A DNA stretch of 64,000 bases from Pseudomonadota bacterium (GTDB lineage: Bacteria > Pseudomonadota > Gammaproteobacteria > Xanthomonadales > Xanthomonadaceae): positions 19,142-83,141 of the forward strand of contig JAZKFJ010000016.1 of the NCBI GenBank assembly GCA_040386495.1, written 5' to 3'. The notes below the pieces were generated by a model that saw only the letters and a list, made by a program, of their open reading frames with translations, made no database searches and was not told the origin of the DNA. Below are positions 1,900 through 64,000 of this stretch, piece after piece. The first letter of the stretch is position 1. Every line of letters starts with the position of its first letter. The position numbers and the translations under genes are program-made.

Positions 1900-3441
1900 A
1901 TGAATACCACCGTCATCGCGGCCAACGCCGCCATCATCGCCGCCAACGCCGCGATTACCGCCGCCAACGCCGCCAACGCCGGCAGCAACGACCACAACAC
2001 ACCGACGCCGGATGCGCAGCGCGCCCCGCCCGCCGACGAGACCGCCGAGCTGGCGCCGACGCTCGACCGGCTCAAGGCCGCATGGCGGGCGAAGAAGCCG
2101 GACTATGCGCAGCGGATCAGCGATCTGGAACGCCTGAAGACGGCCTTCAAGGCGCGGATGGGCGAGATGGCGGCGGCGGTGCGCGCCGATTTCGGCCACC
2201 GTTCCGAACACGAGACCCTGCTGGCCGACGGCATGACCGTGATCGCCGAGATCGACCATCTGCGCAGGCACCTGCGCGGCTGGATGCGGCCGACGCGCGC
2301 GAGCGTCGGCGTCCAGCTGTGGCCGGCCAGCGCGCAGATCCGCCACGAGGCGGTGGGCGTGGTCGGGGTGATGGCGCCGTGGAATTACCCGGTGAATCTG
2401 GCGCTGGTGCCGCTGGTCACCGCCATCGCCGCCGGCAATCACGTATTCCTGAAGCCGTCGGAGCACACGCCGCAGACCAGCGCGTGGTTGCAAAAACTGC
2501 TGGCCGATGTGTTCCCCGCAGACCGCGTCGCGGTCGCGCTGGGCGGCGCCGAACTGGGCGCGGCGTTCTCCGGGCTGCCGTTCGATCACCTGGTTTTTAC
2601 AGGTTCCACGGCGGTGGGGCGCAAGGTGATGGCCGCGGCCGCGCCGAATCTCACCCCGCTCACGCTGGAACTCGGCGGCAAATCGCCCGCCATCGTCGCC
2701 GCGGACTTTCCGATCGACCAGGCCGCGGCGCGGTTGGCCAGCGGCAAATGGTTCAACGGCGGCCAGACCTGCATCGCGCCGGACTACATCCTGATCGACG
2801 CCGCGCGCCGCGACGCGCTGGTGGACGCGTTGCGCGCGCAGGTGCATGCGCGCTATGGCGCGGACATGCGCGAGGCGACCGACTACACCCGCGTGGTCAA
2901 CGAAGGCCAGTACCGCCGCCTGCGCGGCTACATCGACGATGCCCGCGCGCGCGGGCTGACGGTGATCGAACTGGCCAGCGTGGACGCCGGCCGCGCCGAA
3001 ACCGAGCGACTGATCCCGCCGACGCTGATCATCGAACCGGGCGACGACAGCAAGGTGATGCAGGACGAGATCTTCGGGCCGATCCTGCCCATCCACGGTT
3101 ACGCGAAGCTGGAAGACGCCTTGGCCTACGTCGAAACCCACGACCGGCCGCTGGCGCTGTATCCCTTCAGCCACGATCGCGGCATCGTCGAAAACATCCT
3201 CTCACGGCTCATCGCCGGCGGCGTCACCGTCAACGACACCCTGCTGCACTTCGCCGCGCACAATCTGCCGTTCGGCGGCATCGGCCCCAGCGGCATGGGC
3301 CAGTACCACGGCCGCGCCGGCTTCGACGCCTTCACCAAGGCGATGCCGGTGCTATGGCAGGCGCGCTTCACCGCGACCGATTTCATCAAGCCGCCGTATC
3401 GCGGTTGGATCGATCGGATAATCCGCTCCCTGACCAAGTAA
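1900..3441 (+). CDS. NAD(P)-dependent aldehyde dehydrogenase, coniferyl-aldehyde dehydrogenase-like
   Basis: ALDH motifs are present: APWNYPVNL, FLKPSEHTP, FTGSTAVGRKV, LELGGKSPAIV, NGGQTCIAPDY and EEIFGPILP-type DEIFGPILP. The N-terminal about 50 aa are low-complexity, so the start is uncertain. Confidence 0.85.
   Translation: MNTTVIAANAAIIAANAAITAANAANAGSNDHNTPTPDAQRAPPADETAELAPTLDRLKAAWRAKKPDYAQRISDLERLKTAFKARMGEMAAAVRADFGHRSEHETLLADGMTVIAEIDHLRRHLRGWMRPTRASVGVQLWPASAQIRHEAVGVVGVMAPWNYPVNLALVPLVTAIAAGNHVFLKPSEHTPQTSAWLQKLLADVFPADRVAVALGGAELGAAFSGLPFDHLVFTGSTAVGRKVMAAAAPNLTPLTLELGGKSPAIVAADFPIDQAAARLASGKWFNGGQTCIAPDYILIDAARRDALVDALRAQVHARYGADMREATDYTRVVNEGQYRRLRGYIDDARARGLTVIELASVDAGRAETERLIPPTLIIEPGDDSKVMQDEIFGPILPIHGYAKLEDALAYVETHDRPLALYPFSHDRGIVENILSRLIAGGVTVNDTLLHFAAHNLPFGGIGPSGMGQYHGRAGFDAFTKAMPVLWQARFTATDFIKPPYRGWIDRIIRSLTK
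1921..1983 (+). repeat. in-frame 21-bp tandem repeat x3 inside the 5' end of the ALDH gene
   Basis: The units are gccaacgccgccatcatcgcc / gccaacgccgcgattaccgcc / gccaacgccgccaacgccggc, encoding ANAAIIA-ANAAITA-ANAANAG. Confidence 0.8.
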
Positions 3442-3517
3442 GCGGTTGCTACGATCACCGTCTGGCCGGTCAAGCCGCCGCCCCCGCACCGACACCATCG
3501 ACAAGGAAAGGATTCCA

Positions 3518-4573
3518 ATGACCCGGACCACGACTCGCGCGCTGCTGCACACCCTCGTCGTCGCGCTGTTCGCGCTCGCGCTGCCGTTGGCCGCCGACGC
3601 CGCGCCCCGGCCCGCCAAACCGGGCAAGCTGCGGGTCTGGCTGACCGGCAATGCCGCGGACTCCGCGCGCGCGCCGGTCGGCGGCCCGGCGCTGCTGCTG
3701 ATGGGCGGCAGCACCGAAGTCGACGCCGGCTTCTCGCAGCGCGCGTATCCGGTCGCCAACGGCGGCGACATCGTGATCCTGCGCACCTCGGGCAAGGACG
3801 GCTACAACAGCTATCTCTACAACCTCGTTTCCGGGCCGCTGAAACCGGATTCGGTCGAAACCATGCTGGTCGACAGCCGCGACAAGGCCGACAGCGATTA
3901 CGTCGACTGGGTGATCCGCACCGCCGAGTTGATCTTCATCGCCGGCGGCGACCAGGCCACCTACGTCAACGCATGGCAGGGCACCCGCGTGGAAGATGCG
4001 CTGCACGCCGCATACGCGCGCGGCGCGGTGATCGGCGGCACCTCCGCCGGGCTCGCGGTGATGGGCGAATTCGTCTACGACCCGGACGGCATCGCCGGCA
4101 TCACCAGCGCCGAGGCGCTGGCGAATCCGTACAGCCCCTTCATGACCTTGAGCACCGGGTTCCTGCGCTTCCCCATCATGGACGGCATCGTCACCGACAG
4201 TCATTTCCATGCGCGCGACCGCATGGGCCGCACGCTCGCGTTCATGGCGCGGCTGCGCCAGGACGGCGCCGCGGCGCAGATCACCGGCCTCGCCATCGAC
4301 GAACAGACTTCACTGTTCATCGACCGAAACGGCCTGGGCGTGGTCGACAACAACGGCACCGGCGCGGCGTACGTGATCGAGGAACGCGCCGACACCCTGC
4401 GCACGCAGGTCGCGCCCGGCCAGCCGCTGATCTACCGCAACCTGCAGCGCATCCGGCTCGACGCCGGGCGGTTCTACGACTTCGTGAGCCGCCAGCACAA
4501 CGGCCTCGCCGCCATCATCAGTGTGGACGGGCGCAACGCGACCGCGCCGTTCACGCCGGCGGACCCGTACTGA
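3518..4573 (+). CDS. secreted peptidase S51 family protein (cyanophycinase-like)
   Basis: The ATG at 3518 lies behind AAGGAAAGGA. There is a signal peptide (MTRTTTRALLHTLVVALFALALPLAADA). S51 motifs IFIAGGDQ and VIGGTSAGLAV (Ser nucleophile elbow) are present. Confidence 0.75.
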   Translation: MTRTTTRALLHTLVVALFALALPLAADAAPRPAKPGKLRVWLTGNAADSARAPVGGPALLLMGGSTEVDAGFSQRAYPVANGGDIVILRTSGKDGYNSYLYNLVSGPLKPDSVETMLVDSRDKADSDYVDWVIRTAELIFIAGGDQATYVNAWQGTRVEDALHAAYARGAVIGGTSAGLAVMGEFVYDPDGIAGITSAEALANPYSPFMTLSTGFLRFPIMDGIVTDSHFHARDRMGRTLAFMARLRQDGAAAQITGLAIDEQTSLFIDRNGLGVVDNNGTGAAYVIEERADTLRTQVAPGQPLIYRNLQRIRLDAGRFYDFVSRQHNGLAAIISVDGRNATAPFTPADPY

Positions 4574-4673
4574 AGCCTGCGGCCGGGCGCATCCGCGATG
4601 CTGCCCTGCAGCTTGACCCTCGCCACGGCACGGCGTATCAACCCGTATTTCCATCGGGCAACGCTCCGCGACG

Positions 4674-58723: not shown

Positions 58724-60166
58724 TCAGCCGGCTACGGTGGGCAACCCGGCGAGATAAGTCAGGCCGGAGATGCTCGGGAAAAAGCAGTACACCCCGCCGC
58801 GCGTCGTGATGGTGCGGCCGAAGCCGGTCACTGTGGTGTTGCCCGAGCCGTTCGCGCCCGCGCCGGGGAAGGTGAACGCACTTGATGACGGGTCGTTCAC
58901 GCCCAGGAACACGTCCTCGCCGCTGATGTTGAACAGCGCATTGCCTGCGGGCGTGCCACCCGGCGCGGTGGCCGATTTCACGAACGTGTACGTCATGCTC
59001 CACTGGCTGGTCAGGAACTCGAACTGGTTCTGGATGCTGGCATTGATGAAATAACCGACCAGGCCGCGCGTCGCCGAATCCGGCTTGTCCGGATCGTACG
59101 GCGGACCATACGGCATCGCGCGGCGAACGATGCGGTGGTTCGAGCTGGTGCCGCCGCCCACCACGGCCTCGTTGCGCGGATTGTTGCGACGGATGTGCGA
59201 CCCGATCGGGCACATCAGGCCCAGCGTATCGTCGGTCTCGGCCGGCGGCGCGACATAGGTGAAGTTGTTGAGCCGATCGCGCGGCAGCAGCGGATCCTGC
59301 TGCGTCGGCGACAGCGACAGCGGATTGCCGTTGCGCCAGCGTCCGCAGATCTTCGCCGCCGCCATTTCGGTGTCGACACCGGCCTTGTCGGCGAAGCTCT
59401 GCACCAATGCATCGTAGGCGGCCACATCCTGTTCCAGGATGCGGAACGCGGCATAGCTGCCGTTCAACGACAGCTGCGACGGCGACACGCGGTAGCTGCC
59501 GCCGATCTCGTTGGTGTAGCCCAGCAGGAACTCGCCCGTCGCGACCACGGGCTGGTCGTCCGGCGCGTGCTTGGTGGGCGGCGCACCGAGCACGGTCGGC
59601 TGCGAGATGCTGTCGCGATAGCCGAAATGCACCTTGTTGTCGGGCAAGGCGTTGGCGTCCTGTTCCAGCAGGATGGTCGCTGCACCGTCGAAGGCGGACC
59701 GCAGCTGCGCGGACACGGATTCCAGCACTTCGGTCGAGTCGCGCACCCACAGGCTGACCAGCATGTGGACCTGCGCACCGTCGCCGAGCCCGCCGATCCA
59801 GTGTTCGGGCGCGCTGCTGCCCACATCGCCCACATTCCTGGCCACGCCGGCATTGCTTGCGCCAAGCTGGAACGAACCGTCGAAGGTCGCCAGATCGGCG
59901 GCCGAGACGCCCATCGCGGCGAGCCCGGTACAGGTGAAACTGACATTGAGGAAACAGGCAGGGCGAACCTTGGTGCGCTGCGCGGAGGTGATCTTCGGCA
60001 GGCCGTTGCTGCCGTTCACCAGGTCCGTCAGCAGCGTGCCTGTCGCGACGGCATCGGTGATCGAAAGAACGAAATGTCGCGCGAAATCGACGCGATAACC
60101 GCGCAGGATCGTGCCCTGCACATCCGCATAATCGATGGGTGTGGTGTCGGCGGGCGTCGTGGTCAT
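58724..60166 (-). CDS. large DyP-type (dye-decolorizing) heme peroxidase
   Basis: AGGAGG lies before the ATG at 60166. DVQGTILRGY, HFGYRDSISQP (distal Asp region) and CPIGSHIRRNNPR (proximal His) are present. Confidence 0.85.
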   Translation of the reverse strand: MTTTPADTTPIDYADVQGTILRGYRVDFARHFVLSITDAVATGTLLTDLVNGSNGLPKITSAQRTKVRPACFLNVSFTCTGLAAMGVSAADLATFDGSFQLGASNAGVARNVGDVGSSAPEHWIGGLGDGAQVHMLVSLWVRDSTEVLESVSAQLRSAFDGAATILLEQDANALPDNKVHFGYRDSISQPTVLGAPPTKHAPDDQPVVATGEFLLGYTNEIGGSYRVSPSQLSLNGSYAAFRILEQDVAAYDALVQSFADKAGVDTEMAAAKICGRWRNGNPLSLSPTQQDPLLPRDRLNNFTYVAPPAETDDTLGLMCPIGSHIRRNNPRNEAVVGGGTSSNHRIVRRAMPYGPPYDPDKPDSATRGLVGYFINASIQNQFEFLTSQWSMTYTFVKSATAPGGTPAGNALFNISGEDVFLGVNDPSSSAFTFPGAGANGSGNTTVTGFGRTITTRGGVYCFFPSISGLTYLAGLPTVAG

Positions 60167-60283
60167 CCTGACCTCCTGCAAGAGAAGAAGAAACGCGCAG
60201 GCAAGCCACGGCAGATCCGTGGCGTTGCCGGTGCGCGCGCGGCAGACACCGGACCGGCAGACGCCGGCCCGGCGCTCATGCGA

Positions 60284-60760
60284 TCACTTGGCAGGCGGGA
60301 ACGCGGCCAGGATCATCTGCACGGTCTGCGGATACGCCGCATAGATGCCGACGTTGTTCGGCAGGTGCTGCGACGCATCGTTCGCGGCCACGAAGGCCTC
60401 GAATGCGGCCAGGTTGCTCTGCACGGGCGACACCGCCGCCCCGCCGACCACGAAGGCCAGCAAGGCATTGAACACATCGCCGAGCTGGTTCACGAAATCG
60501 CTGATGTAGGCGTTGAAGCTGCCGTCGTATTCGGTGATCACGCTGATCACCAGCGTGTCGGACGGCGTATCGATCTGGCTCATGTCGGGCTGCAGGTTCG
60601 GCTTCGACGTATCGAACAGCACGAAGCGCGCGAAGTGCACGGTGCCGATCGACTGCAATGCGGCATGGATCGCGGCATTGTTGAACGCGAGTGTTTCCAC
60701 GATGGTCGAGAGCTTGGTGCCCGGCAACACGGGCATCATCAGGGTCAGTCCGGTGGTCAT
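60284..60760 (-). CDS. hypothetical protein (158 aa) upstream of and co-oriented with the DyP gene
   Basis: The start at MTTGLTLMMPVLPG lies behind AAGGA. It contains GTVHFARFVLFD and ITEYDGSFNAYISDF. I recognise no family. Confidence 0.55.
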   Translation of the reverse strand: MTTGLTLMMPVLPGTKLSTIVETLAFNNAAIHAALQSIGTVHFARFVLFDTSKPNLQPDMSQIDTPSDTLVISVITEYDGSFNAYISDFVNQLGDVFNALLAFVVGGAAVSPVQSNLAAFEAFVAANDASQHLPNNVGIYAAYPQTVQMILAAFPPAK

Positions 60761-61009: not shown

Positions 61010-61212
61010 CAAGGAACCTCTTTCCGAAGAGCGAAGTAGGATGGGTTGAGCGTAGCGATACCCATCAAAAAGCAACTGCAGAGCTTCCGCGCTAGCGCGC
61101 GGGTAACTTTCTTTGTCGCAAAGAAAGTCACCAAAGAAAACTCTCAGTGACGAGGCAAATCTGCCATCGGAAACATGGCCGGGATTTTTCGATGCGGCAT
61201 CCTGCCGCGTCG

Positions 61213-61238
61213 AAAAACGGCGCACGTCCTGTGCGCCG
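61213..61238 (-). terminator. rho-independent terminator on the minus strand, distal to the cassette array
   Basis: The minus strand reads CGGCGCAC-aggac-GTGCGCCG followed by TTTTT. Confidence 0.6.
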
Positions 61239-61317
61239 CCCTTTGGGTCTGCAGAAGAATGTCAGCAACACTATGACGGGCATTTCGATGGGACGACAGC
61301 CTATGTATCGCCCAATA

Positions 61318-61606
61318 GCGTAGGGCGCATAAGCCGAAGGCGTCATGCGCAATCGAATGCTGCCGGCGCGGTGACAGAAAGGTGCATGACGCTTCGCTTA
61401 TGCACCCTAAGCGGCTATATGCGCCTTACGGCCTTAGCGTCACGTGGCCGACGCCACGATGCGGGGTCAAATTGTGCAGGGCGTAAGGTGCATAAACCCA
61501 AGGCGTCATACGCCATCGAATACTACCGGAGCGGAGCGGTGACAGAAAGGTGCATGACTCTTCGCTTATGCACCCTACGCGGCTATATGCGCTTTACGGC
61601 CTTGTC
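61318..61606. repeat. two about 120-bp copies of a composite REP (GTAGGGCGCATAAGCC.. / GGTGCATGACGCTTCGCTTATGCACCCTA) flanking an attC remnant
   Basis: The copies are at about 61319-61435 and 61482-61603. The second copy supplies the last codons and the stop of the lipoprotein ORF (ggctatatgcgctttacggcc). The first carries the same words (ggctatatgcgccttacggcc). Confidence 0.75.
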
Positions 61607-61990
61607 GTTAACAAGGACATATTGGCCGTTCCACGAGAGTGGCTTGCTAACTTCATCGTCCGTATTGTCGTAGTACAGATTCACACGCATTTGAGTGCCA
61701 GACACTTCAATAGTACCCGTGTATTCGTATCCAGACTTCACTGGAATGTCGTCTCCTCGAATTGTCCCGCTCAAACGAGGTAGGTCGAGCTCCAAGTGCT
61801 CTTCATATGTCTTGCTGAGAATCAATGAAACCGGATCGTGCGCCATCAGCATGCGTTTGCCAGAAAGCGTCACTGTGTATCGGCCGTCAAGCTCAAAATA
61901 GGCGGCCTCTTTGTAGTTATGACTTCGGTCACAGCCGGTCAATGCCATTCCTATCGCAATGCACACAACGCAGACGAGCGAGAGCTTCAT
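61583..61990 (-). CDS. cassette-encoded lipoprotein, function unknown
   Basis: MKLSLVCVVCIAIGMALTGC has a lipobox. AGGA lies 3 nt before the ATG and immediately after the attC core site. Confidence 0.55.
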   Translation of the reverse strand: MKLSLVCVVCIAIGMALTGCDRSHNYKEAAYFELDGRYTVTLSGKRMLMAHDPVSLILSKTYEEHLELDLPRLSGTIRGDDIPVKSGYEYTGTIEVSGTQMRVNLYYDNTDDEVSKPLSWNGQYVLVNDKAVKRI

Positions 61991-61993
61991 TTT

Positions 61994-62052
61994 CCTAACA
62001 CCTGAATTAAGCCGAGACGCGAAGCGGCTTCGGCGTGAATTAATTTTTAGGT
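61994..62052 (-). repeat. attC site (59 bp)
   Basis: The minus strand reads ACCTAAAAATTAATTCACGCCGAAGCCGCTTCGCGTCTCGGCTTAATTCAGGTGTTAGGA. It aligns end to end with the aadA1 59-base element as I remember it. The upstream ORF stop lies in the first heptamer. Confidence 0.75.
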
Positions 62053-62964
62053 AGCGCTCAAGCAATACTTTCTAGATGCATCGAGCACGTCCGCCACTTT
62101 AACCTCTATGTATTTCAGAAAAATTTTGATCTCTTCTGGTTCTAAATTTTTTTGGTTGGTCGTGATGCTTGCGGGTGTAGCGTGCAGTAACTTGCTTGAG
62201 AAAGCATAGATGTAGTCATACTCATCTTGCAGTTCTACCTTCTTCGCCATTTCATTCCATTTCCAACGCTTCTTCCTACCATTGTTGTCAAGCATCAGGT
62301 CGGATACCTTAGGAAGGATATTCGCGTCAAAGTTAGACCGCTCATTCTCTATTTCAATCAGGGCCAACTCAGCTGACGGAATGGCGTTGCTCTCAACTAG
62401 GTAAGCCTGAAAGTCGTAGCCGTTATGCTTAGCGTGCTCCGAATATATGGAGAACTTCCGCGCAGCCTCGGCGTCGATTGAATCAGCTACCGAATGAATT
62501 ATTCTTGCGCGATCTTCGGGCGACTGTTCTGTTGCGAGAAGTGCGTCTTGCCTCTCATTCTCTCTGCGATCAAATTCTCGAAGTAGCGCAACTTCCCGAT
62601 GAAATTGCCTGAGGGTGCTGTGATAGTAGTTCTTTTGTGTCTCGATCAACTGGTCGTAATATACGAAGCCATAGCGCTCATCTATCTCGAAAAGCTTCAG
62701 CCAGACGCTAAGCTCGAACAAATATCTTGAAACAGCAACAACACCCAATGTTTCGACGAAGTTGAAATTTTGCTCAATTAGTAGGCGTATGCGAACGAGA
62801 CTGTCCCCGACGACTGACAAGCACCAGAGATGAGCGCTTTGATTGTCAAACGCCGCAGCCAACTCGGACGGACGCAGGCGCCTTGCCTCTGCGTCGACCG
62901 AAACGCGATGAGCCCTGATTCTTTCTATTAAGCTTGTGAGCTGTGCTACGACGTGATCTGTCAT
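62047..62964 (-). CDS. cassette-encoded hypothetical protein (305 aa, predicted helical)
   Basis: An AT-rich ORF with no family recognised. It starts 5 nt after the attC core GTTAAGT. Confidence 0.6.
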   Translation of the reverse strand: MTDHVVAQLTSLIERIRAHRVSVDAEARRLRPSELAAAFDNQSAHLWCLSVVGDSLVRIRLLIEQNFNFVETLGVVAVSRYLFELSVWLKLFEIDERYGFVYYDQLIETQKNYYHSTLRQFHREVALLREFDRRENERQDALLATEQSPEDRARIIHSVADSIDAEAARKFSIYSEHAKHNGYDFQAYLVESNAIPSAELALIEIENERSNFDANILPKVSDLMLDNNGRKKRWKWNEMAKKVELQDEYDYIYAFSSKLLHATPASITTNQKNLEPEEIKIFLKYIEVKVADVLDASRKYCLSAT

Positions 62965-62969
62965 GTGCT

Positions 62970-63072
62970 ACTTAACGCCTGAGTTAACAGCGGGGTGGCG
63001 GACGCGTGATAGCGTAGCGCGGGCACGTAGCCGACGCCACGATATGGGGTCGGCTTGAACGAATTGCTAGGC
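62970..63072 (-). repeat. attC site (103 bp)
   Basis: On the minus strand it starts GCCTAGCAATTCGTTCAAGCCGACCCC and ends ...GTTAACTCAGGCGTTAAGT. The stop codon of the YrhB-like ORF lies within the first heptamer. Confidence 0.7.
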
Positions 63073-63363
63073 GCCACCAGGGGATAGTGATGCTTTGTAG
63101 CGGGAAATGTAAGCATCAATTGATTCTGCAGTGCCGGTCGCGACGACGTCACCTGTGAAACGGTTGACTATGACTGGAGCATTGCCCACAAGAGCATCCG
63201 ACGGATCTTCGCTCTGGATGTAAACACGTGATTGATAAAAGAACACCCAGCCGAACGATTTTTCGAGTGTGTCAGATGTAAGCACGACTACCTCGATGGG
63301 ATCGTCTGGCAAGCCGCAGATCCGAGCCTCTACTAATGATTGTGCTTGAGCAAGAGAAAGCAT
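63067..63363 (-). CDS. YrhB-like immunity-protein family member (orphan)
   Basis: MLSLAQAQSLVEARI...IEVVVLTSDTLEKSFGWVFFYQSRVYIQSEDPSDALVGNAPVIVNRFTGDVVATGT..IDAYISRY. The FGWVFFYQS and GNAPxIVxRxTG pattern is that of YrhB / polymorphic-toxin immunity proteins. Confidence 0.65.
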   Translation of the reverse strand: MLSLAQAQSLVEARICGLPDDPIEVVVLTSDTLEKSFGWVFFYQSRVYIQSEDPSDALVGNAPVIVNRFTGDVVATGTAESIDAYISRYKASLSPGGA

Positions 63364-63372
63364 CTTTGTGGC

Positions 63373-63485
63373 GCCTAACGCCTTAGTTAAGCCGCCCCGT
63401 GGCGGGGCGGCGGACATGGGCAAGAGTAGCGTAAAGCACATGCTAGATGCCACGATGCGGGGTCGGCTTGAACGAATTGTTAGGC
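63373..63485 (-). repeat. attC site (113 bp)
   Basis: On the minus strand it starts GCCTAACAATTCGTTCAAGCCGACCCCGC and ends ...GGCGGCTTAACTAAGGCGTTAGGC. The core GTTAGGC lies 9 nt before the next start codon. Confidence 0.8.
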
Positions 63486-63517
63486 CTCTGCGTGAAGGCG
63501 CGTTTAAGTTTGAGCAG

Positions 63518-64000
63518 CTACTCATAGCTCTGAAACGTAATCACGTCCTCATGGTGGAACTCGCATACCCAACTCTTTCTCTCGTTGAGAGCGAGCATGG
63601 CAACTCCAACTGACCAAGAGAACGCATCCCAGTATTTGACTAAGAGCTTCCATTCAGTGGCTACGACAATCTCGTCGTAGACAAGATAAATGCTTGTGGA
63701 GTAGGGAACACTTCTTCGATGGAGCCACTCCCTTGTCGCTTGCACATCTTGTGGGCTATTCCATGAATCAGCGATGCTGCGCATCTCATTTCTTTGGAAC
63801 TTTCCGTTCGCGGAGGCCGAGTATCCAGGCACATCCTTTAGCAGTTCACGCCCTAGTTGGACGGCCTTGATACCAAACAGCGCTTCGATCCGTTCGGCAT
63901 GGGGGCTAGGGAGGGGCAAGTAGCTCTCCCCGGTGAAAATTCGAGATTGCTCTTTGTTCGATAGCGCCGCCCATTTCTTGGAGCCACTATTGGTTTGATG
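63518..64000 (-). CDS. cassette-encoded hypothetical protein, probably 5'-truncated by the window edge
   Basis: The track starts it at a TTG (63919). The frame nevertheless stays open through 64000 (HQTNSGSKKWAALSNKEQSRIFTGESY...). I recognise no family. Confidence 0.4.
   Translation of the reverse strand, partial: HQTNSGSKKWAALSNKEQSRIFTGESYLPLPSPHAERIEALFGIKAVQLGRELLKDVPGYSASANGKFQRNEMRSIADSWNSPQDVQATREWLHRRSVPYSTSIYLVYDEIVVATEWKLLVKYWDAFSWSVGVAMLALNERKSWVCEFHHEDVITFQSYE

Follow-up and report, generated by a model that had tools for sequence, protein, structure and literature searches.

A short integron cassette array without an adjacent integrase gene in a gammaproteobacterial contig

The right-hand end of a 64,000-nucleotide stretch of a Pseudomonadota contig (JAZKFJ010000016.1, positions 19,142 to 83,141; the whole stretch is called the window here) carries a series of open reading frames (ORFs) on one strand, separated by imperfect palindromes. 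Are these palindromes attC sites of an integron, and if they are, where is the integrase that would have assembled the array? An earlier note, made from the letters of the window alone, had proposed a chromosomal integron cassette array whose integrase gene (intI) and primary recombination site (attI) lie beyond the right edge. We find that the palindromes are genuine attC sites of an integron cassette array. The array is not part of a complete integron, since no integrase gene lies next to it. Most likely (at a probability of roughly 0.85) it is what survives of a sedentary chromosomal integron in an uncultured member of the Lysobacteraceae, sampled in a watershed metagenome; the array would have lost its intI in situ and would now be an attC cluster that lacks an integron integrase (CALIN). 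As an array it is ordinary and of low novelty.

Layout of the array

The GC content falls from 0.65-0.69 to 0.45-0.55 at about 61.0 kb and stays low up to the window edge. Between 61.3 and 64.0 kb there are four co-oriented ORFs on the minus strand, each followed by an imperfect palindrome of the attC type, as the earlier note had described. In the order in which the minus strand is read, the features are as follows.

Cassette 1 ORF: 63518-64000, minus strand, open at the window edge; the full protein (P0001) has 162 aa, with its ATG at virtual position 64006
attC1: 63373-63485, minus strand, 113 nt; R'' box GCCTAAC, R' box GTTAGGC, extrahelical G in the L box; canonical
Cassette 2 ORF: 63067-63363, minus strand, 98 aa; Imm35-family immunity protein of polymorphic toxin systems
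attC2: 62970-63072, minus strand, 103 nt; R'' GCCTAGC, R' GTTAAGT; degenerate
Cassette 3 ORF: 62047-62964, minus strand, 305 aa; no family above threshold
attC3: 61993-62052, minus strand, 60-nt class; R'' ACCTAAA, R' GTTAGGA; of the aadA1/qacL/fosE-like type, weakened
Cassette 4 ORF: 61583-61990, minus strand, 135 aa; predicted lipoprotein whose signal peptide ends in the lipobox LTGC

Each attC starts at or over the stop codon of the preceding ORF. The leaders from R' to the next ATG measure 9, 5 and 2 nt after attC1, attC2 and attC3, and the leader of cassette 1, counted from an attI-like core described below, measures 4 nt. The four minus-strand ORFs show the one-ORF-one-attC organization of cassettes, with leaders too short to hold promoters of their own. 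Some details of the first description needed correction: leaders of 5 to 9 nt had been given, which left out those of 2 and 4 nt; the coordinates of the R'' and R' heptamers were right except for the last (GTTAGGA lies at 61999-61993, not 62000-61994); and the lengths of 113 and 103 nt stand, but the short site has 60 nt and not 59.

P0001 is encoded on the source contig of the window (128.8 kb), where it is 100% identical to the partial ORF, and also on a Logan metagenome contig, L118. Its only Pfam match was to DUF2947, below threshold (E = 0.013), and it had no NCBIfam match. In four other metagenome contigs a homologue with 66% identity immediately follows an attC-like site. The cassette 2 protein was assigned to Imm35 (Pfam PF15567, E = 8.2e-11, 42.3 bits against a cut-off of 27.5), and an exact-sequence look-up returned no record for it. 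The sole match of the cassette 3 protein, DUF5677, was sub-threshold (E = 3e-5, 24.6 bits against a cut-off of 27.1) and NCBIfam gave none; the search with this cassette reached only one Logan contig, of 2.1 kb, which ends within attC1. The signal peptide and lipobox of cassette 4 were read directly from the sequence (MKLSLVCVVCIAIGMALTGC), and this protein matched neither a Pfam nor an NCBIfam family. No resistance gene was found among the four cassettes. A tblastn search with the four cassette proteins against 117 related loci detected a single weak Imm35 match (in L035), and the cassette content is not common to the sampled relatives.

Identification of the attC sites

From the related loci 113 distinct sites were extracted, most of them 112-113 nt long, starting with RYYTAAC and ending with GTTAGGC. 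A covariance model (R1) was built from 61 non-redundant attC bottom strands of other genomes, with no sequence of the window. R1 is a custom-built model, neither the IntegronFinder attC model nor that of Ghaly et al. 2021 with its cut-offs. In its consensus fold the R boxes are paired, the L boxes are paired and a long variable stem follows, with compensatory changes on both sides in 13 of the 37 pairs. Searching the window together with L118 (67.6 kb), R1 detected attC1 at 103.3 bits (E = 3e-29), attC2 at 69.2 bits (E = 1e-18) and attC3 at 31.3 bits (E = 6e-7), all on the bottom strand, which is the plus strand of the window. The best other distinct place scored 14.7 bits (E = 0.076). Otherwise that score was exceeded only by attC1 and attC2 read on the top strand (28 and 17.2 bits) and by the part of attC1 contained in L118.

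Folding of the bottom strands had been proposed as a check in the earlier note, and attC1 passes it. As single-stranded DNA its bottom strand folds at -30.1 kcal/mol (z = -4.4; top strand -21.2), with a paired R box of 7-8 bp and a paired L box with a bulged G, a pattern like that of the aadA1 attC. The R'' boxes of attC2 and attC3 (GCCTAGC and ACCTAAA) deviate from RYYYAAC.

GC-rich imperfect palindromes just downstream of ORFs could also be dispersed repeats of the repetitive extragenic palindrome (REP) or miniature inverted-repeat transposable element (MITE) kind, or transcription terminators, unrelated to integrons, and a genuine dispersed repeat does lie next door (61030-61250). We regard this explanation as extremely improbable. 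R1 and the arm words AATTCGTTCAAGCCGAC and GGCTTAACTNAGGCGTTAGG match these sites only in the 64 kb; with up to three mismatches allowed, each word was found twice, against 0.12 and 0.00 matches expected. The 64 kb hold no other copies, which a dispersed REP family would have, and the sites run from a stop codon to 2-9 nt before the next start codon. Moreover, the same family is found in arrays beside integron integrases and matches the annotated attC sites of aadA1, qacL and blaGES-1. An Rfam search of 58-64 kb with E values up to 1 returned two chance-level matches only; Rfam has no attC family.

Relatives in Lysobacteraceae and Xanthomonadales

A 20-mer of the sites (AATTCGTTCAAGCCGACCCC) was used to scan for relatives, with one genome per species; the genome of the window was not among the matches listed. 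More than 116 genome stretches matched. About two thirds of the matches listed were labelled Lysobacteraceae/Xanthomonadales (Lysobacter, Thermomonas, Pseudoxanthomonas, Xanthomonas, Stenotrophomonas and Luteimonas), and many of those listed were arrays, with up to 12 hits spaced at 400-600 nt. Over its full length, attC1 is 85-91% identical to attC sites of Lysobacter, Thermomonas, Pseudoxanthomonas, Xanthomonas and other arrays. Ten array-adjacent recombinases were examined and all are integron integrases of TIGR02249 (468-502 bits, cut-off 265). In blocks that contain both intI and the attC seed, the attC sites are on one strand and intI is on the other, divergent from the cassettes. Judged by sequence identity and R1 scores, the sites of the window are members of the Xanthomonadales-like attC clade of Ghaly et al. 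2021.

The 20-mer also occurs in genomes labelled Acidobacteria, cyanobacteria (Microcoleus and Nodosilinea), Burkholderiales, Perlucidibaca and Halothiobacillus; the loci with such labels include L003, L016, L060, L064, L067, L073 and L106. Not all of these occurrences can be binning errors, because some of the genomes are from isolates. This hints at a spread of cassettes beyond Xanthomonadales.

The published sedentary chromosomal integrons of Xanthomonadales, from Xanthomonas, Lysobacter, Thermomonas and Pseudoxanthomonas (PMC8352920; bioRxiv 10.1101/2025.06.18.660453), resemble the array of the window in the sequence and structure family of their attC sites, with 112-nt and 60-nt classes, in host order, in a cargo mostly of unknown function, in frequent loss or decay of intI and in a published similarity to the attC sites of aadA1a, aadA7, qacI, catB3 and other cassettes. 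Unlike Xanthomonas integrons, which lie beside ilvD, the array of the window lies beside an endonuclease-I-family gene and hrpB. It also differs from Xanthomonadales integrons in being very short (four cassettes), and its intI is wholly absent, not inactivated in place.

The missing integrase gene

The sequence to the right of position 64000 was recovered from L118, a 3,565-nt Logan contig from a watershed metagenome. It overlaps the window at 63457-64000 with no differences and extends 3,021 nt rightward, to virtual position 67021 (window position equals 67022 minus L118 position). The following features were found on it.

ATG of cassette 1: virtual 64006, minus strand
GTTAGGC core, attI-like: virtual 64017-64011, minus strand
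Spacer: 335 nt, between the core and the endonuclease gene
Endonuclease-I-family gene: virtual 66143-64353, minus strand, 596 aa; Endonuclease_1, Big_5 and (weakly) LTD domains, host GC
hrpB, 5' end: right of the endonuclease gene, plus strand

hrpB fills the sequence to more than 4 kb from the first attC. A tblastn search of the window and the 3,021-nt extension (67 kb) with 13 integrase sequences from relatives (10 confirmed as TIGR02249) gave a best E value of 0.09, and a regular expression for tyrosine-recombinase motifs found nothing in the window. Neither the 61 kb on the left of the array nor the 3.0 kb on its right contains intI, and R1 detected no further attC in the extension.

These results bear on the expectation that intI, on the plus strand, and attI would follow to the right of 64000. 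An attI-like site is indeed there. The ORFs further right are the endonuclease-I-family gene and hrpB, and the extension holds neither an integrase gene or remnant nor a further attC, the outcome that the earlier note had itself named as counting against its proposal. A complete sedentary chromosomal integron, with intI and attI just right of the window maintaining the array, is what the cassette orientation and attC polarity predict, and the relatives show exactly such a layout. We nevertheless consider it very unlikely, since the 3,021 nt consist of spacer, endonuclease gene and hrpB with no intI or fragment of it, and since three of the four attC sites are degraded (see below), which fits the absence of a working recombinase.

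The neighbourhood is shared with relatives. The endonuclease gene and the 56 nt downstream of it have about 80% DNA identity to three related loci (L078, L080 and L034), and at the protein level identity is 74-81% for the endonuclease and, in L080, 85% for HrpB. All three carry a full-length intI directly between the endonuclease gene and the array. The gene order in the relatives is array, attI, intI, endonuclease-I gene, hrpB; in the window with its L118 extension it is array, attI-like core, approximately 250 bp of unrelated DNA, endonuclease-I gene, hrpB. Thus, intI is missing from a conserved locus, because three relatives carry it between attI and the same endonuclease gene. In the approximately 250 bp between the core and the endonuclease terminator we found no trace of intI or of the attI-intI spacer of the relatives, only alignments at noise level. 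Loss of intI is recurrent in the clade: at five related loci intI is reduced to fragments, and at seven others the attI motif is present but intI is not. This agrees with what has been reported for Xanthomonas (bioRxiv 10.1101/2025.06.18.660453) and for CALINs at large (PMC4889954).

In one of the three relatives, the long-contig MAG L078, the match to the endonuclease-I-family gene beside intI (2795-4595) is split over three frames or pieces, which suggests frameshifts, from either true pseudogenisation or long-read assembly errors.

The attI-like core and a possible promoter

The motif CCCC-N5-6-GGGGTCTAnTnGnnGTTAGGC was found once per locus in 18 related loci (L022, L034, L043, L074, L080, L097, L111 and 11 others), beside intI where intI is present. 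Besides the seven of these loci that lack intI, three have intI fragments only. A TTGAC box lies approximately 64 nt upstream of the conserved attI core in Lysobacteraceae integrons. In L118 the sequence ACCC-N9-GGGTCAATTAGGTGTTAGGC stands exactly where cassette 1 begins and 4 nt ahead of its ATG, in agreement with the core of the attI motif, and here too a TTGAC box is found, at the same distance from GTTAGGC as in the relatives.

Decay of the sites and a scrambled distal end

Under R1, relatives with a retained intI have scores of 97-133 bits for 112-nt sites and 48-58 bits for 60-nt sites. The sites of the window are decaying: attC1 is canonical, attC2 degenerate, attC3 weakened and attC4 a fragment. 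In attC2 the AAC triplet of R'' is gone and some 9 nt are missing from the L' box and the base of the stem. Under R1 nine model positions are deleted and eight pairs broken; the bottom strand, folded as single-stranded DNA, is without the long hairpin. In attC3 there are L-box mismatches besides the R'' box ACCTAAA, and its fold reaches -11.5 kcal/mol versus -18.8 for the aadA1 attC. Beyond cassette 4 the following were identified.

attC4 remnant: 61450-61489, minus strand, 40 nt; 5' half of the variable stem of a 112-nt-class site, with R''/L'' and the entire 3' half gone
Scrambled distal end of the array: 61318-61608, no strand; two copies of a palindromic element of 95-100 nt

The attC4 remnant (GACCCCGCATCGTGGCGTCGGCCACGTG) was read directly and fits the attC family consensus; as a member of direct-repeat family D1 it is 63% identical to the reference copy, attC2. 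It is below detection by R1. The two copies of the palindromic element (61318-61412 and 61481-61580) are bounded by 17-nt terminal inverted repeats (GCGTAGGGTGCATAAGC). The final 21 nt of the cassette 4 ORF are repeated ahead of each copy, and the 40-nt attC4 fragment sits between the two. The doubling shows as direct repeats D2 and D3, which are 92% and 83% identical and 163-168 nt apart. No further copy of the element was found in the window or in any fetched locus, and its four terminal arms are the sole ones in the window. The arrangement could have arisen by duplication or by insertion into the last attC. The element occupies the spot at which the last attC should begin and, as a lesser possibility, might be a small mobile element with attC sites as its targets.

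Origin of the array

With three model-detected sites within 1.5 kb on one strand, the array falls within the CALIN class of Cury et al. 2016 (PMC4889954), defined by two or more attC sites that share a strand and lie less than 4 kb from each other, with no intI nearby. It is also like other CALINs in having fewer than six sites, as do 83% of them (PMC4889954), and in carrying cassettes unrelated to resistance genes. It is unlike most in that its origin can be read from synteny; approximately 95% of CALINs have no trace of intI nearby and their origin is open (PMC4889954). The modest use of this locus lies here, since for most CALINs the origin is undeterminable.

In-situ loss of intI is the simplest reading. 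The steps by which such an array would have been assembled follow established integron biology. Circular cassettes, each with one ORF and one attC, would have been inserted one by one by an IntI tyrosine recombinase at the attI site beside intI. The reaction would have taken place on the folded attC bottom strand (the plus strand of the window), with its paired R and L boxes, extrahelical G and variable stem. Later, intI would have been lost from the conserved endonuclease-hrpB locus and the attI-like core kept. The four cassettes would now be essentially fixed chromosomal genes and, if expressed, would presumably be read from a promoter in the attI-proximal spacer.

Alternatively, the cassettes may have been relocated from an integron elsewhere in the same genome, whose integrase still controls them in trans. 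Rearrangement and IntI-mediated insertion at secondary sites are among the routes listed for CALINs by Cury et al. 2016, and for about half of CALINs the replicon also carries an IntI (PMC4889954). We think this improbable, if less so than a complete integron. The same endonuclease/hrpB locus carries intI in three relatives and the attI-like core is in the right place; because of this shared locus and the retained core, loss in situ is preferred to relocation. The decay of the attC sites also speaks against ongoing recombination.

Several points weigh against the favoured reading. The sequence right of 64000 was taken not from the contig of the window but from another, independent assembly of the same sample, although the depths are similar (9.9 versus 11). 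The similarity to attI is weak upstream of the core, and the core itself fits the 3' end of an attC3-type site at 17 of 20 positions with one gap, compared with 16 of 20 for the attI consensus. It could therefore be the 3' half of a truncated attC, in which case the deletion would also have taken attI and some cassettes. The promoter scan found a single weak sigma-70-like match (TTGAAC-16-AATAAT), approximately 125 nt upstream of cassette 1, where 0.4 were expected. Finally, an intI elsewhere in the genome might mobilise the cassettes in trans.

If an integrase were supplied in trans, cassette 1 alone looks able to move, flanked as it is by the attI-like core on one side and the intact attC1 on the other. 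It has to be asked whether the array, even without an integrase, is still a live cassette donor, with attI-like core and canonical attC1 bracketing cassette 1 and attC3 belonging to the class of fosE, qacL, aadB and aadA. We find this doubtful. Were it true, a mobile class 1 integron or another chromosomal IntI that entered this freshwater bacterium could excise and capture the cassettes, and integrase-less remnants of this kind would serve mobile integrons as a functioning reservoir.

Resemblance to clinical attC sites

The earlier note had called the sites almost identical to the aadA-type attC. The aadA1 sequence on which it relied is correct, as shown by the aadA1 attC read from plasmid NZ_CP017221.1 (GTCTAACAATTCGTTCAAGCCGACGCCGCTTCGCGGCGCGGCTTAACTCAAGCGTTAGAT). 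The likeness holds for the arms and not for the sites as a whole. The 5' arm of attC1 and attC2 is identical to that of the aadA1 attC at 23 of 24 positions, but whole-site identity to it is 46-52% for these two sites; attC3 is identical to the aadA1 attC at 46 of 60 positions (77%) and to the qacL attC at 50 of 60 (83%). By BLAST, attC3 is 84-91% identical to the attC sites of fosE (approximately 90%), aacA34, aac(6')-IIa and aadB, and matches over at least 80% of its length were found in 3,441 plasmid records. Over its whole length attC1 shares approximately 75% identity with the attC (110 nt) of a blaGES-1 cassette from a class 3 integron. R1 scored the clinical sites at 76.3 bits (blaGES-1), 57.8 bits (aadA1) and 52.9 bits (qacL). 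By sequence comparison, then, the sites of the window are of the same family as the aadA1 attC, not almost identical to it as whole sites.

The attC sites of class 1 and class 3 cassettes (aadA1, qacL, fosE, aadB and blaGES-1) share with those of the window the R''-L''...L'-R' layout, an extrahelical G in the same place, an identical 5' arm CTAACAATTCGTTCAAGCCGAC and a nearly identical 3' arm GGCTTAACTNAGGCGTTAG, and the 60-nt class shares the loop GCCGCTTCGCG with clinical sites. Unlike the clinical sites, those of the window lie on a chromosome, not on a mobile element, and go with cargo other than resistance genes; as whole sites they reach only 46-77% identity to aadA1, and the 60-nt site is more degenerate.

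A further suggestion was that the likeness is of interest for the origin of mobile resistance cassettes. The link between Xanthomonadales attC sites and aadA-type cassettes is already published and is no new lead: Ghaly, Tetu and Gillings 2021 (PMC8352920) assigned Xanthomonadales-type attC sites to aadA1a, aadA7, qacI, catB3 and 15 other resistance cassettes. The locus adds one more environmental example of Xanthomonadales integrons that carry the attC family of clinical cassettes and often lose their integrase.

Neighbouring DNA

The dispersed repeat left of the array (61030-61250) is a discrete structured element of approximately 165-220 nt with sharp ends and terminator-like hairpins (RNA fold z = -6.45). 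Its depth in the source metagenome is 248x versus 11x in the flanks. A search of metagenome loci gave 71 matches (74-94% identity) at 51 of them; long contigs hold several copies each, and copies often form inverted pairs 440-700 nt apart. Because the arrays of the window, L096 and L041 have it on their distal side, an association with integrons was considered. This was rejected, since just 5 of the 51 loci have an attC: the element belongs to a dispersed family of the MITE or REP kind, outside the integron.

Further left, two genes were identified.

157-aa ORF, no family: 60284-60757, minus strand
DyP-type peroxidase: 58724-60181, minus strand; TIGR01413 (E = 1e-22), DyP_N

This left flank (58724-60757) is ordinary host DNA with a GC content of 0.65.

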